In this document: piece by piece, positions 8,717 through 55,972 of the stretch | Layout: every line of letters starts with the position of its first letter | Position numbering within the stretch: the stretch's first letter is position 1 | NCBI GenBank assembly: GCA_031263985.1 | Contig: JAISER010000079.1 | Span: 750 to 64,749, forward strand | Length of the DNA: 64,000 nucleotides | Direction: 5' to 3' | Origin: Clostridiales bacterium | GTDB taxonomy: Bacteria; Bacillota; Clostridia; Lachnospirales; JAISER01 | Notes under the pieces: generated by a model | Told to the model about the DNA's origin: nothing | The model's database searches: none | The model's input: only the letters and a program-made list of their open reading frames with translations | Program-made: the position numbers and the translations under genes

Positions 8717-8753
8717 TAAAAAATCTTTCCATGCCCATCCGAGATAAGAAAAT

Positions 8754-8872
8754 ATGACTATCCAATTGTTTCATGAAGCCGCGCGAATGCGCTGCGCGGG
8801 GCACAGGGTCTAAGACCCCGGCAGGGTTTAGGGCGGAGTCCCAAGGTCTTTATGACTTGTCTGGATAGCTAT
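8754..8872 (+). repeat. MITE-like family B, full copy
   Basis: Aligns end to end with 2607..2725 and 47864..47981. Lies 38 nt downstream of a plus-strand stop codon. Confidence 0.8.
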
Positions 8873-8996
8873 TTAAGAAAATGGGCAAGAAAACGGAATA
8901 GGCTCTGTCAGAAAATAAAGTGTGCGGCCATAGCGCAAAAAGGGACTCGGGATAAAAACCGCGCCCCTTTTTTGATTGGAAATAGTTTTCAATTTT

Positions 8997-9068
8997 TAAG
9001 AGCCTGGTTAAAATCTTGCTTTTAGCGGATTTTTGCAGTGATTTTTCGCCAAACGCGGAAACGCGAAC
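8997..9068. repeat. MITE-like family A, one arm
   Basis: TAAGAGCCTGGTTAAAATCTTGCTTTTAGCGGATTTTT...TTTTCGCCAAACGCGG matches the right arm of the 170-bp copy at 51949..52118. Confidence 0.7.
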
Positions 9069-9253: not shown

Positions 9254-9425
9254 GTTCTTACCGTAACGCGTGAAGAATTTGAGATAATTCGAAAAGATTT
9301 ATAAGAGGCGAAGAAACCGAAAAAACACCTAAAAAGGACTTGTATGATATTTTTCGCGCGATACTTTATTTCATAAAAGGCGGTTGTCAAGGGCATATGC
9401 CGGCGGAATGGAACAATGTGGAAAT
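9254..9425 (+). pseudogene. IS5-family transposase N-terminal fragment
   Basis: Reads DLYDIFRAILYFIKGGCQGHMPAEWNNV, which fits the DUF4096-type N-terminus of IS5-group transposases. There is no start codon and no DDE domain. Confidence 0.5.
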
Positions 9426-9505
9426 TATAAGCTCATCGGGATCGACAAAATTAAAACTTTGTGATATAATATAGAAATACAGGCGCGACAAACGGAGGTG
9501 TCTTC

Positions 9506-9982
9506 ATGGTACGTGAATTGTATCTAGCCAACAACTTTTTGAAGCGCGCGTTCAAATCCGTGAACCTAAAAGAAAAGATAACGCCTATGAAACTGCAAAA
9601 GCTTTTATATCTCACCTATAAGCATTATCTCAAATCGACAAATTCGCCGCTTTTTTCAGAACGTTTTGAGGTCTGGGCGTATGGGCCCGTCTTGGGGACG
9701 ATTTACAGACAGTTCAAAAAATATGGCGGGGAAAGCATCGACGCGTATTATGTAGACGAAGACCATTCGATATATACCATCGACGAAGAAAGCGACGGTA
9801 TATTATCCGCCGCGATAAATTATGTCTGGGAGAATTATTCGGAGTATACCGGCCCAGAGCTTTCATGTCTTACGCACCAGCCGGATACGGCTTGGCATAA
9901 AGCTGACGCGCGAAACGATTACACTCTGGACGATAATGAAATACAAGTCGAAAGGTGGTATATAATTGCACGCGGCGAATGA
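9506..9982 (+). CDS. DUF4065 / Panacea-domain protein (SocA/GepA-like, candidate PanA antitoxin)
   Basis: The block MKLQKLLYLTYKHYL...PLFSERFEVWAYGPVLGTIYRQFKKYG matches the DUF4065 signature. An extended -10 TGTGATATAAT and RBS GGAGGTG lie upstream. Confidence 0.75.
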   Translation: MVRELYLANNFLKRAFKSVNLKEKITPMKLQKLLYLTYKHYLKSTNSPLFSERFEVWAYGPVLGTIYRQFKKYGGESIDAYYVDEDHSIYTIDEESDGILSAAINYVWENYSEYTGPELSCLTHQPDTAWHKADARNDYTLDDNEIQVERWYIIARGE

Positions 9983-10298
9983 TATGAATGAGAAAACGCG
10001 CTTAAAAGAGAGCGAATTACAAACTATTGAAAACGCTGAAATCCCCAAGAAAGAAACGACAAAATTAAAAAAAGAGACGGAGTCGGAGAAACAAAACGCC
10101 CACGAGCGTAAGATGGATGTGTTTAACAGAAACGCGGGAGTAGTAACGTTATGGGGGATTCTTTTCGTAATGTCCGCTGTCGCTATAATGCGTATGGTCA
10201 TACTTGAAGACGAAGACGTGGCGAAAGACTTAGTCGAATGCCTCAAAAGCTTTGGCTTGATAATACTTGGATATATATTCAATAACATGAGAAAGTGA
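9966..10298 (+). CDS. Small membrane protein, candidate toxin partner of the Panacea-domain protein
   Basis: TTG start lies 7 nt after AGGTGG and overlaps the upstream stop by 17 nt. The N-terminus is K/E-rich and is followed by two hydrophobic segments (VVTLWGILFVMSAVAIMRMVIL, FGLIILGYIF). A terminator follows directly. Confidence 0.5.
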   Translation: MHAANDMNEKTRLKESELQTIENAEIPKKETTKLKKETESEKQNAHERKMDVFNRNAGVVTLWGILFVMSAVAIMRMVILEDEDVAKDLVECLKSFGLIILGYIFNNMRK

Positions 10299-10329
10299 AA
10301 AAACCACGCCGCCGCAGCGTGGTTTTTTT
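10299..10329 (+). terminator. Intrinsic terminator of the two-gene unit
   Basis: AACCACGC-loop-GCGTGGTT followed by T7. Confidence 0.7.
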
Positions 10330-10550
10330 GACGCCGGGACAAAACCTTTTAAGATGTCATACAGTTTTATATTAGCGTGTAGGCGTTCTTGTATACAGGA
10401 TTCCGGATTTCTGAGCTTTTTGACATTTGGCCGGCAATGAGGGCGCCGACAAGATTGGCGCGGTTTTATCCGCTGGCGGTCTAACGTGATTTGTAACATA
10501 TGGCGTAGAATTTGAATAGCGATTTGTAAAGAGCTGAAGTAGTCAAATTT

Positions 10551-10584
10551 TTGACTTTACAACGATGATTTTTTTATATATAAT
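10551..10584 (+). promoter_or_regulatory. Candidate sigma-A promoter for tRNA-Trp
   Basis: TTGACT, then TATATA/TATAAT 18-22 nt downstream, about 20 nt before the tRNA. Confidence 0.4.
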
Positions 10585-10600
10585 GCAACTAGACTTAATT

Positions 10601-10673
10601 AGGGGTATAGTTCAGTTGGTAGAACGCAGGTCTCCAAAACCTGATGTCGAGGGTTCAAGTCCTTCTGCCCCTG
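10601..10673 (+). tRNA. trnW: tRNA-Trp (anticodon CCA)
   Basis: Folds as a cloverleaf by eye: acceptor AGGGGTA/TGCCCCT, anticodon loop CTCCAAA, T-loop GGTTCAAGTCC. No encoded CCA. Confidence 0.85.
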
Positions 10674-10759
10674 TACGGGGATCTCGGCGCGAATGAGCGT
10701 GAAATTTTAACGCGTCGAGGTTTACGCTATATTTTTTTTCGCGCTTTTATCCGGCTATC

Positions 10760-10817
10760 TAAGAGCCTGTTTAATATCTTGCTTTTAGTAGGTTTTTTGT
10801 GATGATTTTTCGCCAAT
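10760..10817. repeat. MITE-like family A, one arm
   Basis: TAAGAGCCTGTTTAATATCTTGCTTTTAGTAGG...TTTTCGCCAA. Confidence 0.7.
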
Positions 10818-10845
10818 CGTTAAGATTGTCGGCGCTAAACGGGCC

Positions 10846-13310: not shown

Positions 13311-13455
13311 TTAGAACCTTATTTAAGATCTCCATTTCGCGTCTTTTCGGCTTATTAGACCTGCTCCGAGACTTGACTCTGGCGTCCGCGCTTCCGAGTT
13401 CGGCGGAAAATCATCACAAGAAATCCGCTAAAAACGAGATTTTAAACGGCTCTTA
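13311..13455. repeat. MITE-like family A, complete 145-bp copy
   Basis: Both termini are present (TTAGAACCTTATTTAAGATCTCC ... GAGATTTTAAACGGCTCTTA). It almost fills the parB/DUF4446 intergenic gap. Its last 3 nt are the parB stop codon. Confidence 0.8.
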
Positions 13456-15101: not shown

Positions 15102-15197
15102 GGTTCCTCCGTGAAATAAATTTTCTAAGTACATATATTCTAGAACAACGCGGGCGTAAAAGCAAGAAAATTAAACGTTATATCGCGCCGCGCATTA

Positions 15198-15323: not shown

Positions 15324-16176
15324 TTATAGTTGAATGCTATTGAAACAGTAACGCAAACAATCATCAAAACTATCGAAATAGGATAAATCTTTCCTGAGCT
15401 TGCGTTTAAGCCATGTCCAAAATTTCTCAATAGGGTTATATTCCGGGGAATACGGCGGCGGGAAGACTATTTTATGTTTATTGCTTTCGGCAAGCGAAAT
15501 AAGCCGTTTTTTTCGATGGAAAGCGGCATTGTCCATTACAATGACGGAATTAAAAGGACATTCGCGCAAGAGACAGTTTTCAAACCAAAACTCAAATAAC
15601 CGACTATCCATTGTTCCGTTAAATTGGAACGGCGACATGATTTTTTCGCCCATTTTGGCGGCGACAATACCCAAGCGCCGATATTTCCTACCGGAAATTC
15701 GCTCAATAATTTTTTCTCCGCGCTTAGAATAAGCGTACTCTCCGCGCAAAAAAGTATCGATGCCGGTTTCATCAATATAAACAATGCTTTCCGGTCGAAC
15801 ATCACGGATTTGTTCTAAATATTCGGCGACTTTTTCAGCGTCTTGCTCCTTGTAACGCTTCATCTTTTTTTACGCGTTATATTAAAGCGTTTAAGAGTTC
15901 TGCAAATCACAGATTGATGGCAGCCGAAGCGCTCGCCTATTTCTGACTGGTAAGCGTCCGGATTGATTTTTAGATACGCTAACAGGTCTTCTTCGCTTAC
16001 AGCCGTTTTATAGCTTCGGTATTTTCGCTCAAGTCCTCCGCTATCGCGATATTGTTTTAACCAGGCGTTCAATGTGTTTGGCGATATGCGAATGTCTTTG
16101 CCGTTTCCCTGATACTGTGTCCTTCTTTATGATATTCTATTGTTCTTTTCCGATATTTTTTATCATAACTCCTCAT
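15324..16176 (-). pseudogene. IS630-family transposase, disrupted
   Basis: Three reading segments are present. A 1-nt deletion relative to copy 2 (TTCGCATATCG versus TTCGGCATATCG, near 16085) stops the first segment. An A7G site at 15860-15870 separates the HTH segment (15860..16072) from the DDE segment (15324..15863). Confidence 0.7.
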
Positions 16177-26115: not shown

Positions 26116-26403
26116 CTGACAACCGCTTTTTATTAGGTAAATGGGTTCGACGGATTAATGAGTGAGTTTTTCGCCGCGTTAGAATTTTGATGACGAACGG
26201 CTACGAAAACCGACGCTTAGCTGCCAACCCAGACGATAAACAGACTCTTATATCGCTAGGATAATCTATACGTTTTATCTCCATCTTGGAGGATTATAGC
26301 GCTTCTGAAAGATTCTGAACAGGCTTTTAAAATATATTCGGCCGAAAGCCGTAAAGTTCCGTTATTGGCGGAAATTTCGCGCGGCGCGTTTTCAGGGGAC
26401 ATT

Positions 26404-27505
26404 TTAGCGCGAATAATAGTTCATCGGATTTTGACGCGAACCGTTCATCAGCGCCTCATAATGCGTGTGCGGACCGGTCGAATAACCTACGCTGCCAACG
26501 ATCGTATATTGTGGTCAACATTTACCGCGCCGGACTTTATTATGCTTAAGTAAAGACCTTGGGGACTCCGTCCCCAAACCCCCGCAAAAGGGACTTCGTC
26601 CCTTTTGAAACCCCCGCGGCGCTTCGCGCTGGCCAGGGAAGCTATCGGACTACTCCAAGATGGGGGATTCTTAGAGCCTGTTCAGTATCTAGCGCGAACT
26701 GTTCATCAGCGCCTCATAATGCGTGTGCGGACCGGTCGAATAACCTGCGCTGCCAACGATCGTATATTGTGGTCAACATTCACCGCGCCGGATTTTATTA
26801 TACCTAAGTAAAGACCTTGGGGACTCCGTTCCCAAATCCCGCTTTGAAACCCTGCGGCGCTTCGCGCTGGCCAGGGAAGTTATCGGACTATTCCGAGATA
26901 GGGGGACTCTTAGAGCCTGTTCAGTATCTAGCGCGAATAATAGTTCATCAGGTTTTGATGCGACCCGTTCATCCGCACCTCATAATGCGTGTGCGGACCG
27001 GTCGAACCCTGTGCTGCCAACGTTAGCTATCGTTTCGCCCTGACGCGCGCTCTGACCGACTTTAGAGATTAGTTTGGGGCAATGCGCGTACATTGTGGTC
27101 AATATCTGTAAAGACCTTGGGGACTTCGTCCCCACCCCCCCCCGCAAAAGGGACTTCGTCCCTTTTGAAACCCTACGGCGCTTCGCGCTGGCCAGGGAAA
27201 TTATCGGACTACTCCGAGAGATGGGGGATTATTAGAGTCTGTTCAGTATCTAGCGCGAACTGTTAATCGGCGCATCATAATGAGTGTACGGATCGGTTGA
27301 ATATCCTGCGCTTTCAACGAGCGTACATTGTGGTCAACATTTACCGCGCCGGACTTTATTATGCTTAAGTAAAGACCTTGGGGACTCCGTCCCAACCCCC
27401 CGTAAAAGGGACTTCGTCCCTTTTGAAACCCTACGACGCTTCGCGCTGGCCAGGGAAGCTATCGGACTACTCCGAGATGGGGGATTCTTAGAGCTCGTTC
27501 AGTAT
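26404..27505 (-). repeat. Array of four units: a copy of the M23 peptidase gene 3' end plus a 135-bp chimeric MITE-like spacer
   Basis: Cassette stop codons sit at 26404, 26689, 26928 and 27250, giving periods of 285, 239, 322 and 256 bp. Each cassette aligns to 27506..27745 of the expressed gene. Confidence 0.85.
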
Positions 27506-28672
27506 CTAGCGCGAATAATAGTTCATCGGGTTTTGATGCGAACCGTTCATTCGCACCTCATAATGCGTGTGCGGACCGGTCGAATACCCTGTGCTGCCAA
27601 CGTTAGCTATCGTTTCGCCCTGACGCACGCTCTGACCGACTTTAGCGATCAGTTTGGAGCAATGCGCGTACATTGTGGTCAATCCGCCGCCGTGGTCCAC
27701 AATTACGGTGTAGCCGTAGCCGTTTACCGCGCCGGACTTTATGACTGTTCCGTCCGCGGCGGACACTATGGCGCTGCCTGTTGGCGCGGGTATATCTATG
27801 CCGGTGTGAAACTCGTTTTTGCCACTTATTGGGTTAACGCGGGGACCGAATCCGGAGCTTACGCGGCTGCGGCTGGGCACGGGCCAAACGAGAGCGCCGC
27901 CGCTGTACGGAACGGGCGTATACGCGTTTTGCGCCGTGTTGTAATTCGACTGCTGTTTTTGTATAAGAGCGGCTATTTCATTATTTGACTTTTCAAGCGC
28001 GTTTATCATCTGCTGATACTTCACTTCGTCGGATTCCAGCGCGGCGACCAAGTTCTTCTTTTCGACCAGCTTTTCCTCCAGCGCGCGCGTTTTAGCCGTT
28101 TGTTCGTTAGAGAGCAGTTGTATCTCGTCTTTTTGAACCTTTACTTCCTCTAATTTTTCCTCGACAGCGACTTGCGCTTTGTACAACGTTTCGACAACAT
28201 TATCGTCATATTCGACGATTCGGTTTATGTATTCAACGCGATTCATTAAATCGGAAAGATCCTTAGATTTAAGCAAAACGTCAAGATACGCGCTTTTGCC
28301 GTTTATATACATAAATCTAAGACGTTTGTCAAACGCCTCTTGGCTTCTCGCCCTCTCACGTTCCGCTTTTTGCAGCTCATATTCCGTTTCGGCCAATAGT
28401 TCCTTCGTCTTTTCAAGCTCACGGTTCGTTACTTCTAAGTTATACATGGCGTCGTCCAACGCTTCGTCAATAGCGTCCAATTCCTCCGAAGCGGTCGCTT
28501 TTTTAAGCTCCACATCCTTCAAACTCTTTTGCGCGTCGTTTGTCTGGGCCTTTACGCCCTCTTGCTGTTTCTTAAGCTCTGACAGCGTAAGGCTGGCGTT
28601 AGCTAAAGCTCGCGCGTCAAATAACGCGAAGCAAACCGCGATTGACAAGAAAAACACCGCTAATTTTCGCAA
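27506..28672 (-). CDS. Coiled-coil M23 (LytM) peptidoglycan metalloendopeptidase, FtsEX-associated
   Basis: Signal/TM segment, about 230 aa of coiled coil, then a LytM domain with HTGIDI (HxxxD) and GPHTHYE (HxH). Lies directly downstream of ftsE-ftsX. Confidence 0.85.
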   Translation of the reverse strand: MRKLAVFFLSIAVCFALFDARALANASLTLSELKKQQEGVKAQTNDAQKSLKDVELKKATASEELDAIDEALDDAMYNLEVTNRELEKTKELLAETEYELQKAERERARSQEAFDKRLRFMYINGKSAYLDVLLKSKDLSDLMNRVEYINRIVEYDDNVVETLYKAQVAVEEKLEEVKVQKDEIQLLSNEQTAKTRALEEKLVEKKNLVAALESDEVKYQQMINALEKSNNEIAALIQKQQSNYNTAQNAYTPVPYSGGALVWPVPSRSRVSSGFGPRVNPISGKNEFHTGIDIPAPTGSAIVSAADGTVIKSGAVNGYGYTVIVDHGGGLTTMYAHCSKLIAKVGQSVRQGETIANVGSTGYSTGPHTHYEVRMNGSHQNPMNYYSR

Positions 28673-50984: not shown

Positions 50985-51072
50985 GGAGAAGTACTCAAGT
51001 GGTCGAAGAGACGCCCCTGCTAAGGGCGTAGGTCGGGAAACCGGCGCGGGGGTTCAAATCCCCCCTTCTCCG
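50985..51072 (+). tRNA. trnS: tRNA-Ser (anticodon GCT)
   Basis: Acceptor GGAGAAG/CTTCTCC, anticodon loop CTGCTAA, long variable arm, T-loop GGGGGTTCAAATCCCCC. Confidence 0.85.
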
Positions 51073-51746: not shown

Positions 51747-52580
51747 ATGAGTGATGATAAAAATATCGGGAAAGAACAATAGAATATCATGAAGAAGGAC
51801 ACAATATCAGGGAACCGGCAAAGATATTCGGCATATCGCCAAACACATTGAACGCCTGGTTAAAACAATATCGCGATAACGGAGGGCTTGAGCGAAAATA
51901 CCGAAGCTATAAAACAGGCTATAAGCGGAGAAGAACCGCTAGCGCATCTAAGAGCCTGTTTAAGATCTCCATTTCGCGTCTTTTCGGATTATCTTCCGCC
52001 ACACTTTGTCAGCGCTCTTTGCGTATATTCTTCGAATACGCGGCGTTCGCGTTTCCGTGTTTGGCGAAAACTCATCACAAAAAAATCCGCTAAAAGCGAG
52101 ATTTAAAACAGATTCTTAGAACAAATCCGTGATGTTCGACCGAAAAGCATTGTTTATATTGATGAAACCGGCATCGATACTTTTTTGCGCAGAGAACACG
52201 CTTATTCCAAGCGCGGAGAAGGAGTTATCGGGCGAGTTTTCGGTAGGAAATATCGGAGTTTGGGTATTGTCGCCGTTCCAATTTAACGGAACAATGGATG
52301 TCCGGTTATGTGAGTTTTGGTTTGAAAACTGTCTCTTGCGCGAATGTCCTTCTAATTCCGTCATTATAATGGACAACGCCGCTTTTCATCGAAAGAAACG
52401 GCTTATTTCGATTGCCGAAAGCAATAAACATAAAATAGCGCTCCTGCCGCCGTATTCCCTGGAATATAACCCAATTGAGAAATTTTGGGCATGGCTTCAA
52501 CGCAAGCTCAGGCAAGAGTTATCTTATTTTGATAGTTTTGATGATTGTTTGAGGTACTGTTTCAATAGCATTCAACCATA
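51747..52580 (+). pseudogene. IS630-family transposase, inactivated
   Basis: An A5 run replaces the A6 run of copy 1, giving an early stop. The gene is also interrupted by the MITE, and the terminal stop codon is lost. Confidence 0.75.
51949..52118. repeat. MITE-like family A, complete 170-bp copy nested in IS630 copy 2
   Basis: TAAGAGCCTGTTTAAGATCTCC ... GAGATTTAAAACAGATTCTTA. TA is present at both junctions. Confidence 0.8.
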
Positions 52581-52762: not shown

Positions 52763-55700
52763 TCATGCCAACGTGCGATTTAAAACAACTGACCAGTTGC
52801 TAAACACCCCATTTTTTCTTGTGCGAGCCCTAAATTGATAACTTCCTGTGTCGGGAATAATAAGTATGCCTTCCGAACCTTCAAATGTGGCTATCTTCCA
52901 ATCTGTCGCCGACGCTTTTTTATAGCTTACATCATAAAAAGCGTCGTCATACGGCGGGTTCCAAAGCGGTATGGCTATGCTCAATTGAAGAAAGGCAGAA
53001 GAAAGGCCTAAATGTACAGTAAACGACGTTGGCTTTTCAAGCGAAAACGTAAGCGCCCTCCCCATGGTAACCCTCGCTGAAGGACTGACGGCGCCCAAAG
53101 CGTACCCGCTGTTATTCCCCCACGCGTAAGCGTATATGTCCGAGAACAAATTGTCGCCCTCGTTTATAATCGCAAGGTTGTGATACTGCCCGGCCGAGAT
53201 CGTCCCTATATCGGATCCGTTCGATTGCGTTATTTTCTTCGGTTTATATGTAATAGTCGACGCCTTCGTGTTATACCCCAACTGTAGGCTGTCGTTCTTT
53301 CCCCATGTCCACATGTACCCCGCCGAATCAAGCGACAGGTTGTGGTCAACGCTCGCGGAAATAGATTTTATAACGACGCCCGACGAAGCCACTAAGGTGG
53401 TGTCCACCGTTTGCGTCCCCGTGTAAGCGGTCAAGTTCCCCTTTCCCAACTGCCCTGACGCGTTTTGACCAAATGATTTCAGAACGGCGCCGCCTGACTG
53501 TAAAGCCAGCCCATGCCCGGCGCCCGCGGCTATCTCGACGATATCGCTAAGCCCGGCTATCGCGGTCGCTTCATAAATATTGGTCTCGGAAGACGAGCTT
53601 ATCTTGTTGAAGTCGTTGCGTCCCCAACCGTAAACCTGCCCGTCCGCGCTAAGGGCCAAGCTGAAATCTCCCCCGGCGGCTATATCGACAAAGCTGACGC
53701 CGCTTGGTTTGATTACTTTCATGGCCTGCGATCTGTATGTCGTGTAATCGTCGCCCAGTTGCCCGTAATCGTTGCGCCCCCAAGCGTAAACGTCGCCGTT
53801 TGAGTAAAGCGCCAGACTGTAGTCGCCGAACGCGGATATTTTTAATATGTTGTTTAACGGCGTGAGTATGATTGAAAAAAGCTCGTGCGGCTTCTGCACC
53901 GTTACGGGCGCCGTTTGGTCTGTCGTCGTCATATCTCCGAGCTGCCCGTAGTTGTTGCGTCCCCAAGCCGCCACCGTTCCGTTCGATTGCAGAGCGAGGG
54001 AATGTTCCGCGCCTCCGGCTATCGCGATTACATCCTTCAGCCCTGTGACCGTTTGCGGCTGAGCCGTGTCGGACGAAGTCGTTCCGTTACCTGACGCGCC
54101 GTTACCAAGCTGGCCGTATGTATTGGAGCCCCATGTGGAAACCGTGCCGTTCGGGTTAATCGCCAGCGAAAAGTCTTTTCCGGCGGCGACGCGGGGATGC
54201 GTCGTGCGGGCGACGTCGAGCGCGCGCTGCGCGTTAAGCCTGCCGCCTGTTAAGACTTTCTTTGATATGTACGGCTCTATTCCATTTAATGACTGCATAA
54301 CGTCCACACTGTCAAGTATCGCCTTTTTAATTTCGGCGGTCGTCAGTTCCGGGTTGTACGCCTTGATCAAAGCGGCGACGCCTGTGACCATAGGCGCTGC
54401 ATAAGAAGCGCCTAAATGAATTCCATAGCGATTGTTCGGCCGAGGTCCATATATAAATTTACCTGGCGCCGCTAAATCGACGCTGACAGAACCGTAATTT
54501 GACCCACCGTTATAAAACGTTTCGCTTTTGTTGGTCGGGTTAATTGCGGTGGCGGCGACGGATATCAAGTTGTCGCAGTCAAACGACGATGGGTAACTCT
54601 TAATATTATCGTAAGCGTCAATGGACCCTAAGGTATTTCCAGCCGCAACCACCATAAGGCCTTTGTAACTGTTAATCGCGTCTTCTACGGGAATATATTG
54701 CGCCTTATCCTCATCAGCGTTAGTTGTTTGCCATCCTCCGCTAAAGTTAATAATTTCTATATTGTTATTATTAGCGAACGCTATCGCTGACACTACGGCG
54801 GAAGCTTCGAAGCCTGACCCGCTATCTTTTCTGACTTTCAAGGGGACAATTTCAACGTTAGGAGCTACGCCCGTAAACGAAATATTATTGTTCCATTTAG
54901 CTCCAAGAATGCCCGCCACAGCGGTTCCGTGATAATATTCGGCGATTGTTGAAGGCAAAGGGGACGGATCGTTGTCATCATCCGCGAAATCCTTCCTTAG
55001 AGAACTATCCTGCGTTATGTTAGCCAGCTCAGGATGCGACATGTCAAAGCCGTTATCAATAACCGCGACTTTGACTCTTGATTCCGGATCTCCGGCGGCA
55101 TAGCTCCACACGTATGGCATTTTTATAGCGTCAAGCGCGAGACTTGCCGTATAACCCGGGTTGTCGCTTAGAAAGCCAGCGTCAATAGAGGGATAATAAT
55201 CTGACGGAATGTACTCGCTGACTCCATATTCCTCCATCATATAATAGTCAGGCGTGGCGTATGCCACAAACGGATTATCATTTAAAGCGTCTATTGCGTC
55301 TATGACATTTTGTTTGCCCGGTTCTTTCAGCGTTAGCGCGATTATTTTATCCGAATCGACAATGTCAAATTCGGACGTATCGTTATATTCAATAATTGAG
55401 TTGTCTTCGCCAAACTCCGTTAAACTTTTAATATTGGAAAGCTGAACGCCTAAAAATTCGTTCGTAACGTCATCCTCATCATCGTTTGATATACTAACGC
55501 TTTTCGCGGTTGCTCCGCCGGAAGATAACTTGGCTTCATTCGTTACAATAGGCGTATCTGACAGGAAACTAGCTTTAGCTTCGTCAAACGCTTCTTTAGC
55601 GGCGACATCCGTATTAACGTTCAATTCTTCCACAATGACTGACGGTCGCGCTTTAAGACCTACTATAACGGTGTCTGGCGCAAAATCATCTTCAATGTCT

Positions 55701-55948
55701 ATGTACGTGTGCATTTGGTCTTTCTCTTCTTCCGTGAATTCGGTGACAGCGAAAGAGTCTGGTCTTTCTTTTTCCAAGTCAATGGCCGCAGCGTCGTTTA
55801 TCTCAAGTTCGTTAAATTGTGTCTCATACCCCGACGCCGCGCTTGAATCCAGCGAGTCTGAATCGGCGAAAACCGGATAAACGGCGATTTCGCCTAATAT
55901 CATGACTGATATCATAAACGCTGACAGCTGCTTGCGGCGTTGTTTCAT
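52763..55948 (-). CDS. Secreted subtilase (S8) fused to a 7-blade RCC1-like repeat propeller and a C-terminal FN3-like domain (module 2)
   Basis: 1061 aa with a signal peptide. Triad motifs VAVIDNGFD, HGTAVAG, GASYAAP. Seven WG.N.YGQLG-type repeats (WGSNTYGQLGNG, WGRNNYGQLGD, WGRNDYGQLGDD and others). Confidence 0.85.
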   Translation of the reverse strand: MKQRRKQLSAFMISVMILGEIAVYPVFADSDSLDSSAASGYETQFNELEINDAAAIDLEKERPDSFAVTEFTEEEKDQMHTYIDIEDDFAPDTVIVGLKARPSVIVEELNVNTDVAAKEAFDEAKASFLSDTPIVTNEAKLSSGGATAKSVSISNDDEDDVTNEFLGVQLSNIKSLTEFGEDNSIIEYNDTSEFDIVDSDKIIALTLKEPGKQNVIDAIDALNDNPFVAYATPDYYMMEEYGVSEYIPSDYYPSIDAGFLSDNPGYTASLALDAIKMPYVWSYAAGDPESRVKVAVIDNGFDMSHPELANITQDSSLRKDFADDDNDPSPLPSTIAEYYHGTAVAGILGAKWNNNISFTGVAPNVEIVPLKVRKDSGSGFEASAVVSAIAFANNNNIEIINFSGGWQTTNADEDKAQYIPVEDAINSYKGLMVVAAGNTLGSIDAYDNIKSYPSSFDCDNLISVAATAINPTNKSETFYNGGSNYGSVSVDLAAPGKFIYGPRPNNRYGIHLGASYAAPMVTGVAALIKAYNPELTTAEIKKAILDSVDVMQSLNGIEPYISKKVLTGGRLNAQRALDVARTTHPRVAAGKDFSLAINPNGTVSTWGSNTYGQLGNGASGNGTTSSDTAQPQTVTGLKDVIAIAGGAEHSLALQSNGTVAAWGRNNYGQLGDMTTTDQTAPVTVQKPHELFSIILTPLNNILKISAFGDYSLALYSNGDVYAWGRNDYGQLGDDYTTYRSQAMKVIKPSGVSFVDIAAGGDFSLALSADGQVYGWGRNDFNKISSSSETNIYEATAIAGLSDIVEIAAGAGHGLALQSGGAVLKSFGQNASGQLGKGNLTAYTGTQTVDTTLVASSGVVIKSISASVDHNLSLDSAGYMWTWGKNDSLQLGYNTKASTITYKPKKITQSNGSDIGTISAGQYHNLAIINEGDNLFSDIYAYAWGNNSGYALGAVSPSARVTMGRALTFSLEKPTSFTVHLGLSSAFLQLSIAIPLWNPPYDDAFYDVSYKKASATDWKIATFEGSEGILIIPDTGSYQFRARTRKNGVFSNWSVVLNRTLA

Positions 55949-55972
55949 GATATATCGCTCCCTAATATTAAA

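Follow-up and report, generated by a model that had tools for sequence, protein, structure and literature searches.

We analysed a 64,000-nucleotide (nt) stretch of DNA from a Clostridiales bacterium (GenBank assembly GCA_031263985.1, contig JAISER010000079.1, positions 750 to 64,749), hereafter the window, and in particular two adjacent genes in it, panA (gene 1) and a panT-like gene (gene 2), whose coordinates within the window are given in Table 1. The two genes are a conserved module, in which a protein of the Panacea (DUF4065) family is encoded immediately upstream of a small protein with a predicted membrane location. We consider it probable that this is a bicistronic, translationally coupled toxin-antitoxin (TA) module of the PanAT type (type II-like), in which the putative toxin would be a membrane hairpin. 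The assignment to PanAT rests on analogy, on the anatomy of the two proteins and on their conserved pairing, from which we infer both toxicity and neutralisation.

The panA gene, its partner and their operon

Gene 1 encodes a cytoplasmic, standalone Panacea-domain protein (PanA). In a search of the Pfam profiles it matched PF13274 (SocA_Panacea) with an E of 8.4e-19 and 69 bits, over profile positions 1-113 of 113 and above the gathering threshold of 25.7 bits that defines membership of the domain family. A preliminary description of this DNA had assigned the gene to DUF4065 and had proposed a PF13274 profile search as a check, which the assignment passes. The protein also matched PHROG 1281 (E 7.6e-34) and carries no additional DNA-binding or other N-terminal domain. 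Its score against the NCBIfam equivalog SocA_antitoxin (NF047745) was 87.4 bits, below the cut-off of 190, and therefore we considered gene 1 as a Panacea protein and not as SocA itself. The 44 homologues of gene 1, all of them with PF13274 (44/44), are 31-55% identical to it. Invariant in their alignment are N9, P27-M28-K29-L30, K32-L33, Y35, W57, G60-P61-V62, Y67, W108, L119 and T123, and H124 is nearly invariant. No solved structure was found by sequence search for the protein of either gene.

The preliminary description had attributed to the product of gene 2 a charged N-terminus and two hydrophobic segments, and both the hydropathy and charge profile and a structural model agree with it. 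Precisely, 43% of residues 1-56 are charged, with K+R and D+E in balance. Two hydrophobic segments follow in the hydropathy profile, the predicted transmembrane (TM) segments TM1 (~57-79) and TM2 (~90-105, ending with LGYIF); the loop between them (80-89, LEDEDVAKDL) holds five acidic residues and the C-terminal tail (NNMRK) is basic. Both termini are predicted to be cytoplasmic, since this distribution of charges obeys the positive-inside rule. The AlphaFold 2 (AF2) monomer model, for which the alignment contained 39 homologues, has a mean predicted local distance difference test (pLDDT) value of 65.7, with residues 1-8 and 14-37 below 50. It is a helical hairpin (helix 30-80, turn 81-82, helix 83-109), whose pLDDT, taken as means of 10-residue blocks, is 76-88 from residue 51 on. 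The topology, which the preliminary description had left to prediction, is on charge profile and model together a predicted N-in/C-in hairpin, with the acidic loop outside and the basic tail inside.

Searches started from gene 2 itself returned little. There was no Pfam or NCBIfam match above noise, and neither gene 2 nor three phage homologues of it matched any PHROG. A word-indexed search of 5.8 billion proteins returned only gene 2, and phmmer against 1.8 billion representatives returned gene 2 and low-complexity noise. When the hairpin model was compared by fold with viral structures, no match reached E <= 0.001, the best E being 1.3.

The two genes form one operon and are kept as a pair. 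Direct reading of the sequence confirmed what had been described for the start of gene 2, that is, a TTG 7 nt after an AGGTGG and an overlap of 17 nt with gene 1. The strong terminator that had been placed at the end of gene 2 is likewise present: its hairpin has a folding energy of -17.2 kcal/mol (z = -3.5, with 0 of 200 shuffles equally stable) and is followed by U7. Owing to a flanking A-tract, this terminator could be bidirectional. Regarding the extended -10 promoter proposed for the unit, the site at 9442-9470 agrees with the consensus at 11 of 12 positions and has the TG, so that the claim stands as a candidate by consensus match only. The Rfam scan of the region gave no RNA antitoxin and no riboswitch, with tRNA as the only RNA family.

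Both genes are annotated by NCBI, on a 74.9-kb contig of a Clostridiales metagenome-assembled genome (MAG), with gene 2 starting from the ATG at 9984 (104 amino acids (aa), LBL35_06340). For each locus of the partner family described below, we chose the candidate start with the best Shine-Dalgarno match and counted the resulting geometries: the 17-nt overlap was the commonest (9 loci), with -20 in 7 loci and -4 in 6. Because an overlap of 17 nt with the Shine-Dalgarno sequence inside panA is the commonest geometry of the family, this comparison of sequences favours TTG 9966 over the annotated ATG, without amounting to proof.

The partner family and its pairing with PanA

The family of gene 2 came to light only through the genomic context of the PanA homologues. 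Each of the contigs carrying such a homologue has, abutting or overlapping it downstream, an open reading frame (ORF) of 103-127 aa, and these ORFs are built alike: a disordered N-terminus precedes a TM helix, from which a short loop leads to a second hydrophobic helix that ends in a C-terminal motif. The motif reads E..LK…G[YF]x[FT][GAST] and is usually GY[LIV]F. The statement of the preliminary description that the putative toxin has no recognisable motif has therefore to be dropped, since the protein has this C-terminal motif, which is conserved, and is one of a large family.

A genome scan with the PanA alignment yielded 80 loci (L008-L087). A co-directional ORF starts between -50 and +6 nt of the PanA stop in 75 of the 80, and in 52 of the 80 (52 of those 75) the partner directly downstream has both the hairpin and the motif. 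These 52 loci belong to Clostridia, Lachnospiraceae, Leptotrichia, Alicyclobacillus, Bifidobacteriaceae, Microbacterium, Collinsella and Alphaproteobacteria. As an independent set we considered 80 viral contigs (L174-L253), taken from at least 495 confirmed matches to the PanA clade: exactly one family match was present in 72 of the 80, always immediately downstream of PanA and on the same strand. In 433 kb of unrelated control loci there was no match to the partner family. In the reciprocal test, with two partner proteins as the start, PanA was directly upstream in all 6 of the 6 places shown. The features that define a PanAT two-gene unit, namely an adjacent gene in the same direction within 100 nt, its conservation across relatives and a reciprocal association, were thus found in this case. 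The coupling of a DUF4065 gene to a small membrane protein, which the preliminary description had claimed, is sustained by the homologous hairpin partners downstream of PanA in both sets of loci.

Judged by profile and alignment scores, gene 2 of the window is a divergent Clostridiales member of this family. A family hidden Markov model (HMM) built without the window scored it at 23.8 bits (E 1.3e-6), the best of the 763 stop-to-stop segments of the window, the next having an E of 0.15. By BLASTP, gene 2 and the partner of P0003, the closest relative of the window PanA (54% identical), are 28% identical over 72 aa (E 2e-9), in an alignment that spans the pre-TM helix (AH.R.MD), both TM helices and the LK…GYIF motif. 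Gene 2 is only 8-25% identical to other members of the family. All the invariant columns of the alignment with the Lachnospiraceae subfamily, F53, E91, K94, G102, Y103 and F105, are retained in gene 2.

The profile search returned 378 family members at E <= 1e-3, and the best 120 of these 378 are all hypothetical proteins without Pfam domains. One member, NQ503_11585 of Blautia obeum ATCC 29174, is indexed in ~2,600 blocks of the assembly collection. Three named phage partners scored against the family HMM with E values from 1e-17 to 1e-25. The type of partner mostly follows the phylogeny of PanA, as 59 of 66 nearest neighbours have the same partner type.

A second family of small partners with two TM segments occurs with the same PanA clade (loci in Table 1). 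Its C-terminus reads TT.(V/L)N.L..F.GV.RGLF and it occurs in Proteobacteria, Bacteroidota, Fimbriimonadaceae and E. coli Stx phages. With hhalign (probability 4.6%) there was no support for homology of this TT.N…GLF family to the GY[LIV]F family, in a comparison for which the T3-type PanT of phage PhiR47_1 was aligned with the second family.

Genomic context and features of the window

The PanA-partner pair is often found in phages and prophages. It follows holin and amidase genes in loci L001 and L002, and in Flavonifractor phage Chenonceau it has the holin and endolysin genes nearby. In Streptococcus phages Javan470 and Javan157 it is located between the lysin and paratox genes at the phage end, with PanA annotated as 'GepA'. 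In Blautia phage Montmirail (L088:2681-3916) it is upstream of the terminase and bracketed by tRNA-Asn and tRNA-Ile, and in another prophage it comes directly before the small terminase subunit. As upstream neighbour we considered the largest ORF within 1.8 kb upstream, in a sample of 20 viral loci. This neighbour was an integrase or recombinase in 6 of the 20, and the others include a GH25 lysin, an antirepressor, a sigma factor, structural proteins, Rep3, a primase and a patatin.

Two further observations concern the phage-borne loci. In Blautia-type elements (L257/L258:2580-3228 and L259:2887-3228) the pair lies just downstream of a nucleotidyltransferase gene (NTP_transf_2/Polbeta), which in L257 and L258 is directly preceded and overlapped by a DUF4160 gene; the DUF4160 and nucleotidyltransferase genes may be a second TA-like pair, in a small accessory or defence cluster. 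Among Stx2a-converting phage records (H20-H38), all 19 of the 19 listed match PanA by tblastn, ~16.3 kb into the record and at a place with no annotated feature, and the PanA gene appears to be unannotated there.

Table 1. Positions of the features of the module and of its surroundings in the window, and loci of the second partner family
Feature	Position	Strand	Basis
panA, standalone Panacea (DUF4065) protein, 158 aa, ATG start	9506..9982	+	PF13274, PHROG 1281, homologues
panT-like gene, 110 aa from TTG (104 aa from ATG 9984)	9966..10298	+	family HMM, BLASTP, hydropathy/charge, AF2
Promoter-like site: -35 TCGACA, 17-nt spacer, TG-extended -10 TATAAT (9465-9470; TCGACA-17-TGaTATAAT)	9442..9470	+	consensus scan
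Shine-Dalgarno GGAGGT of gene 1, 6 nt before ATG	9494..9499	+	direct reading
Shine-Dalgarno AGGTGG of gene 2, inside panA 3' end, 7 nt before TTG 9966	9953..9958	+	direct reading
Intrinsic terminator hairpin and U7 tract	10295..10332	+	folding energy, terminator scan on both strands
tRNA-Trp (CCA), own promoter-like site 10556-10584; neighbour outside the operon	10600..10674	+	ARAGORN, Rfam 68.2 bits, promoter scan
Dispersed intergenic repeat copy	8996..9056	.	repeat family shared with 10759-10819
Second flanking copy of that repeat; both copies bracket the islet and tRNA-Trp	10759..10819	.	
Second dispersed repeat family, ~130 nt	8751..8880	.	copies at 2604 and 47861; inverted at 1234
Possible remnant, degenerate and frameshifted, of the N-terminal part of an IS4/IS5-family transposase (DUF4096)	9254..9425	+	weak match
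Loci of the second partner family	L054, L060, L062, L065-L067, L069, L070, L075, L076, L078, L084, L086; L092:1836-2216; L091:804-1352		

There is no prophage around the module in the window, whose neighbours encode a GerA-type germination protein, a BofC-like protein, tRNA-Trp, a metallo-beta-lactamase (MBL)-fold protein and a UDP-GlcNAc 2-epimerase. The preliminary description had placed the unit among an IS5-type fragment, two families of miniature inverted-repeat transposable elements and tRNA-Trp, as in an accessory islet. The tRNA-Trp (by ARAGORN and Rfam) and the two repeat families hold up. The IS5-type fragment is weaker: a hand-spliced two-frame translation of 9254..9425 matched DUF4096 with an E of 0.0016, its score of 19 bits falling short of the cut-off of 34.3, and a DDE domain is absent from this segment. 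The repeats are real but scattered through the whole window (further copies of the 8996-9056 repeat are at 15197 and 19379 and, inverted, at 13390, 16342 and 52081), and therefore they are no evidence that the islet has moved.

The guanine-cytosine (GC) content of the islet is 40-44%, versus 51-55% in the GerA and epimerase genes, which is not decisive for a horizontal origin because the BofC-like and MBL genes next to it have low values too. Metagenome relatives of the flanking MBL-fold gene are 40-48% identical at closest, and the longer loci examined (at least 6 kb) share no other genes of the window and no tRNA-Trp. The tRNA-Trp gene is ~300 nt downstream of the window pair, and tRNA genes likewise flank the Montmirail pair.

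Elsewhere in the window, positions 62763-63368 contain a 202-nt unit in three head-to-tail copies (91-100% identical), and positions 26377-27683 an interleaved repeat cluster with spacings of ~240-580 nt, in which a 68-nt core (TCCCTTTTGAAACCC…GCGCTGGCCAGGGAAGCTATCGGACTACTCC…) is present in four copies; a related 41-nt piece is at 62641. An inverted repeat of ~0.8 kb, in several blocks 91-98% complementary, joins 15325-16160 and 51759-52580, 36 kb apart, and may represent two copies of a mobile element, the second of which is close to tRNA-Ser (50985-51072). Several direct-repeat pairs ~4.7 kb apart at 54127-62123 (57209-57379 versus 61951-62123 at 98%) suggest a tandem duplication of a ~4.7-kb block.

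Putative action, alternatives and known systems

The arrangement to which we compare the module, a Panacea antitoxin paired with a small membrane toxin, is experimentally established (PMC8832971), as the preliminary description had stated. Among the nine PanAT pairs validated by Kurata et al. (2022), three have membrane toxins with a charged N-terminus and C-terminal TM helices; these three PanTs shut down transcription, translation and replication indiscriminately, each is neutralised by its cognate PanA, and depolarisation and permeabilisation of E. coli were shown for two PanTs, the toxins of E. coli and Bartonella (PMC8832971). For the Bartonella toxin, Ernits et al. (2023) predicted contacts of Panacea with the unstructured region at the N-terminus and with the short pre-TM helix, and reported that Y56A and H120E abolish neutralisation (PMC10440598). 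An aromatic-GPV motif and a TH motif are invariant or nearly so in the PanA clade studied here, and we infer from the sequences that they may correspond to the Y56/H120 positions.

The N-terminal ~55 residues of gene 2 are predicted to form a cytoplasmic, disordered and charged region, followed by a juxtamembrane helix and the two-helix hairpin. By analogy with the validated membrane PanTs, the hairpin protein, when free, would insert into the membrane, probably oligomerise, and depolarise or permeabilise it, resulting in growth arrest. PanA would block this toxicity by binding the N-terminal unstructured region and the pre-TM helix of its partner. Most plausibly, the module would serve temperate phages and other mobile elements as an accessory 'moron', for phage defence, superinfection exclusion or addiction, and the window copy would have been left behind as a solitary islet in the chromosome of a spore-forming Clostridiales MAG.

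A possible site for such binding lies in the disordered N-termini of the partners, which carry an acidic-proline motif in variants such as EDVPP, EDEPF, EEDIPK and IDEPL. The pattern [DE][DE].P[PFLIK] was present in 20 of 38 non-redundant partners of the viral contigs, versus 2.0 expected with shuffled N-termini as the null model, and 0 of 1000 shuffles reached 20. The motif is also found in members of the second (TT.N…GLF) partner family, and as a sequence pattern it fits a candidate docking site for PanA. The conserved pre-TM helix of the partners is a second, indirect hint of a possible complex with PanA. A wider proposal, which we put forward tentatively and consider rather unlikely, is that the partners are unrecognised and very widespread prophage-borne membrane-hairpin effectors with a portable E-[DE]-x-P-[PFL] docking motif, that PanA reads this linear motif and not a fold, and that the pairs would act in abortive infection or superinfection exclusion in gut Firmicutes. 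If PanA did recognise a short linear motif, its 'hyperpromiscuity' would be explained and membrane effectors could be swapped as modules.

Phage carriage also bears on what the module is for. The PanA clade is abundant in viral contigs and the pairs occupy typical accessory sites of temperate phages (after holin and lysin genes, beside an integrase or recombinase, just before the terminase), which speaks for a trigger-dependent phage-defence or superinfection-exclusion module in place of a classical addiction TA system. In such a module PanA would sense the infection and release or activate an effector that is possibly non-toxic on over-expression. We judge this account improbable, although it is the best placed of the alternatives: no prophage surrounds the module in the window, and no PADLOC model matches either protein, for which reason a defence role is a conjecture. 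It overlaps the mechanism proposed above, a membrane effector with a direct binder, and differs from it mainly in biological role.

Class II holins have two TM helices, an N-in/C-in topology and a charged C-terminal tail, and the hairpin protein is predicted to be like them in these respects; its gene also adjoins the lysis cassettes of several prophages. It is nevertheless very unlikely that it is a holin-like or antiholin-like lysis-timing factor of prophage origin, regulated by PanA and not part of a TA system. In fact, those prophages already encode annotated holins and lysins, gene 2 has no holin family match in Pfam or PHROGs, and many copies are far from lysis genes, near integrase, terminase or replication genes or alone in chromosomes. 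Hardly any weight can be given to the explanation that gene 2 of the window is a non-functional, decaying remnant beside an orphan PanA in a degraded mobile-element scar, as its position beside a possible transposase remnant and dispersed repeats, its low identity to other family members and the lack of an exact-word or phmmer relative in large protein collections could suggest, given that the reading frame is intact, the invariant columns of the Lachnospiraceae-subfamily alignment are all retained, the score of the HMM built without the window is significant, and neither the Shine-Dalgarno sequence nor the overlap geometry nor the terminator has been lost.

Several points weigh against the reading as a PanAT module. 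The module was read from sequence, and its gene 2 may start either at TTG 9966 or at ATG 9984. The acidic-proline motif is degenerate in the window copy (ENAEIPKK; positions 10026-10049, residues 21-28, read IENAEIPK), and the PADLOC models matched neither PanA nor gene 2 nor two phage partners. In E. coli, several predicted PanTs of Kurata et al. (2022) showed no toxicity or escaped neutralisation, and the rows of cluster T31 considered here from Dataset S1, a cluster to which we return below, are all marked 'notest' (PMC8832971). Homology to the T3-type toxin was not found: the PanT of PhiR47_1 (22-nt gap, as in Dataset S1) scored 3.4 bits with the family HMM, in addition to the low hhalign probability given above.

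With the PanAT-type reading, a former 'hypothetical protein' of the window becomes a confidently assigned accessory module. Although Pfam, PHROG, NCBIfam and PADLOC contain no model of the partner family, its members are common in human-gut Lachnospiraceae, in bifidobacteria and in prophages of streptococci, and they occupy the usual sites of virulence and defence cargo. The effector is small (~105 aa) and has a clear motif, the binder has 150 aa and there is a candidate docking motif, which makes the family a tractable system for the study of Panacea recognition of membrane toxins and of phage defence.

In Caulobacter the soluble toxin SocB blocks the sliding clamp of DNA polymerase, and SocA, the founding DUF4065 protein, serves as its ClpXP adaptor. 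The module shares with SocAB (type VI) the Panacea domain; it differs in that the score of 87 bits with SocA_antitoxin is far under the equivalog cut-off and the partner is a membrane hairpin, not SocB-like. Compared by description, RmrT(D5) (RosmerTA of Gordonia phage Kita), HokB and TisB are also small, depolarising proteins with a C-terminal membrane segment, but the antitoxin is there an ImmA/HTH protein (Rosmer) or an antisense RNA (type I). RmrT(D5) is phage-encoded and defensive (PMC10440598).

Two candidates were rejected as relatives. The comparison with the largest cluster of Kurata et al., T1, was uninformative, as the partner in Salmonella phage Emek is a soluble protein of 161 aa without similarity to the family. 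The T1 protein of C. cadaveris is listed as an mRNase in Dataset S1 and many other members are unannotated small proteins, so that the cluster appears heterogeneous (PMC8832971). The PanT of Streptococcus phage P9 (toxic, membrane, not neutralised) is a multi-TM protein of 269 aa and does not belong to this family.

The closest likeness in organisation is to the membrane PanATs of E. coli STEC O31 (T3), Bartonella apis/choladocola (T12 = NetFlax D11) and Helicobacter (T4), with T12 and T4 likened by description only: a standalone Panacea gene is followed by a small partner in the same direction, the partner has C-terminal TM helices after a charged or disordered N-terminus, the order is antitoxin then toxin, the genes abut or overlap, and the systems are associated with mobile elements. 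The window partner differs from T3 in forming a separate sequence family and in being shorter (110 versus 182 aa).

In sequence the nearest published group is cluster T31 (pT37), for which the rows listed in Dataset S1 include Bifidobacterium stellenboschense, Pseudoscardovia radai, Corynebacterium and Actinomyces (PMC8832971). One of our genome loci, L055 (B. stellenboschense DSM 23968, 3-nt gap), corresponds in strain and gap to a T31 row of that dataset and its partner carries the G[YF]LFG motif; therefore, at least the actinobacterial branch of the family had already been predicted in silico. Homology is also seen at the level of the profile, as the HMM that includes the partners of L055 and P. 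radai (L052), and not the window, is the one that detects gene 2. In contrast to the published T31, which is actinobacterial and small, the family described here also extends to Clostridia, Lachnospiraceae, Streptococcus phages, Leptotrichia and Alphaproteobacteria. The module is a divergent member of an already known kind of system, and the current understanding of these systems is not overturned by it.

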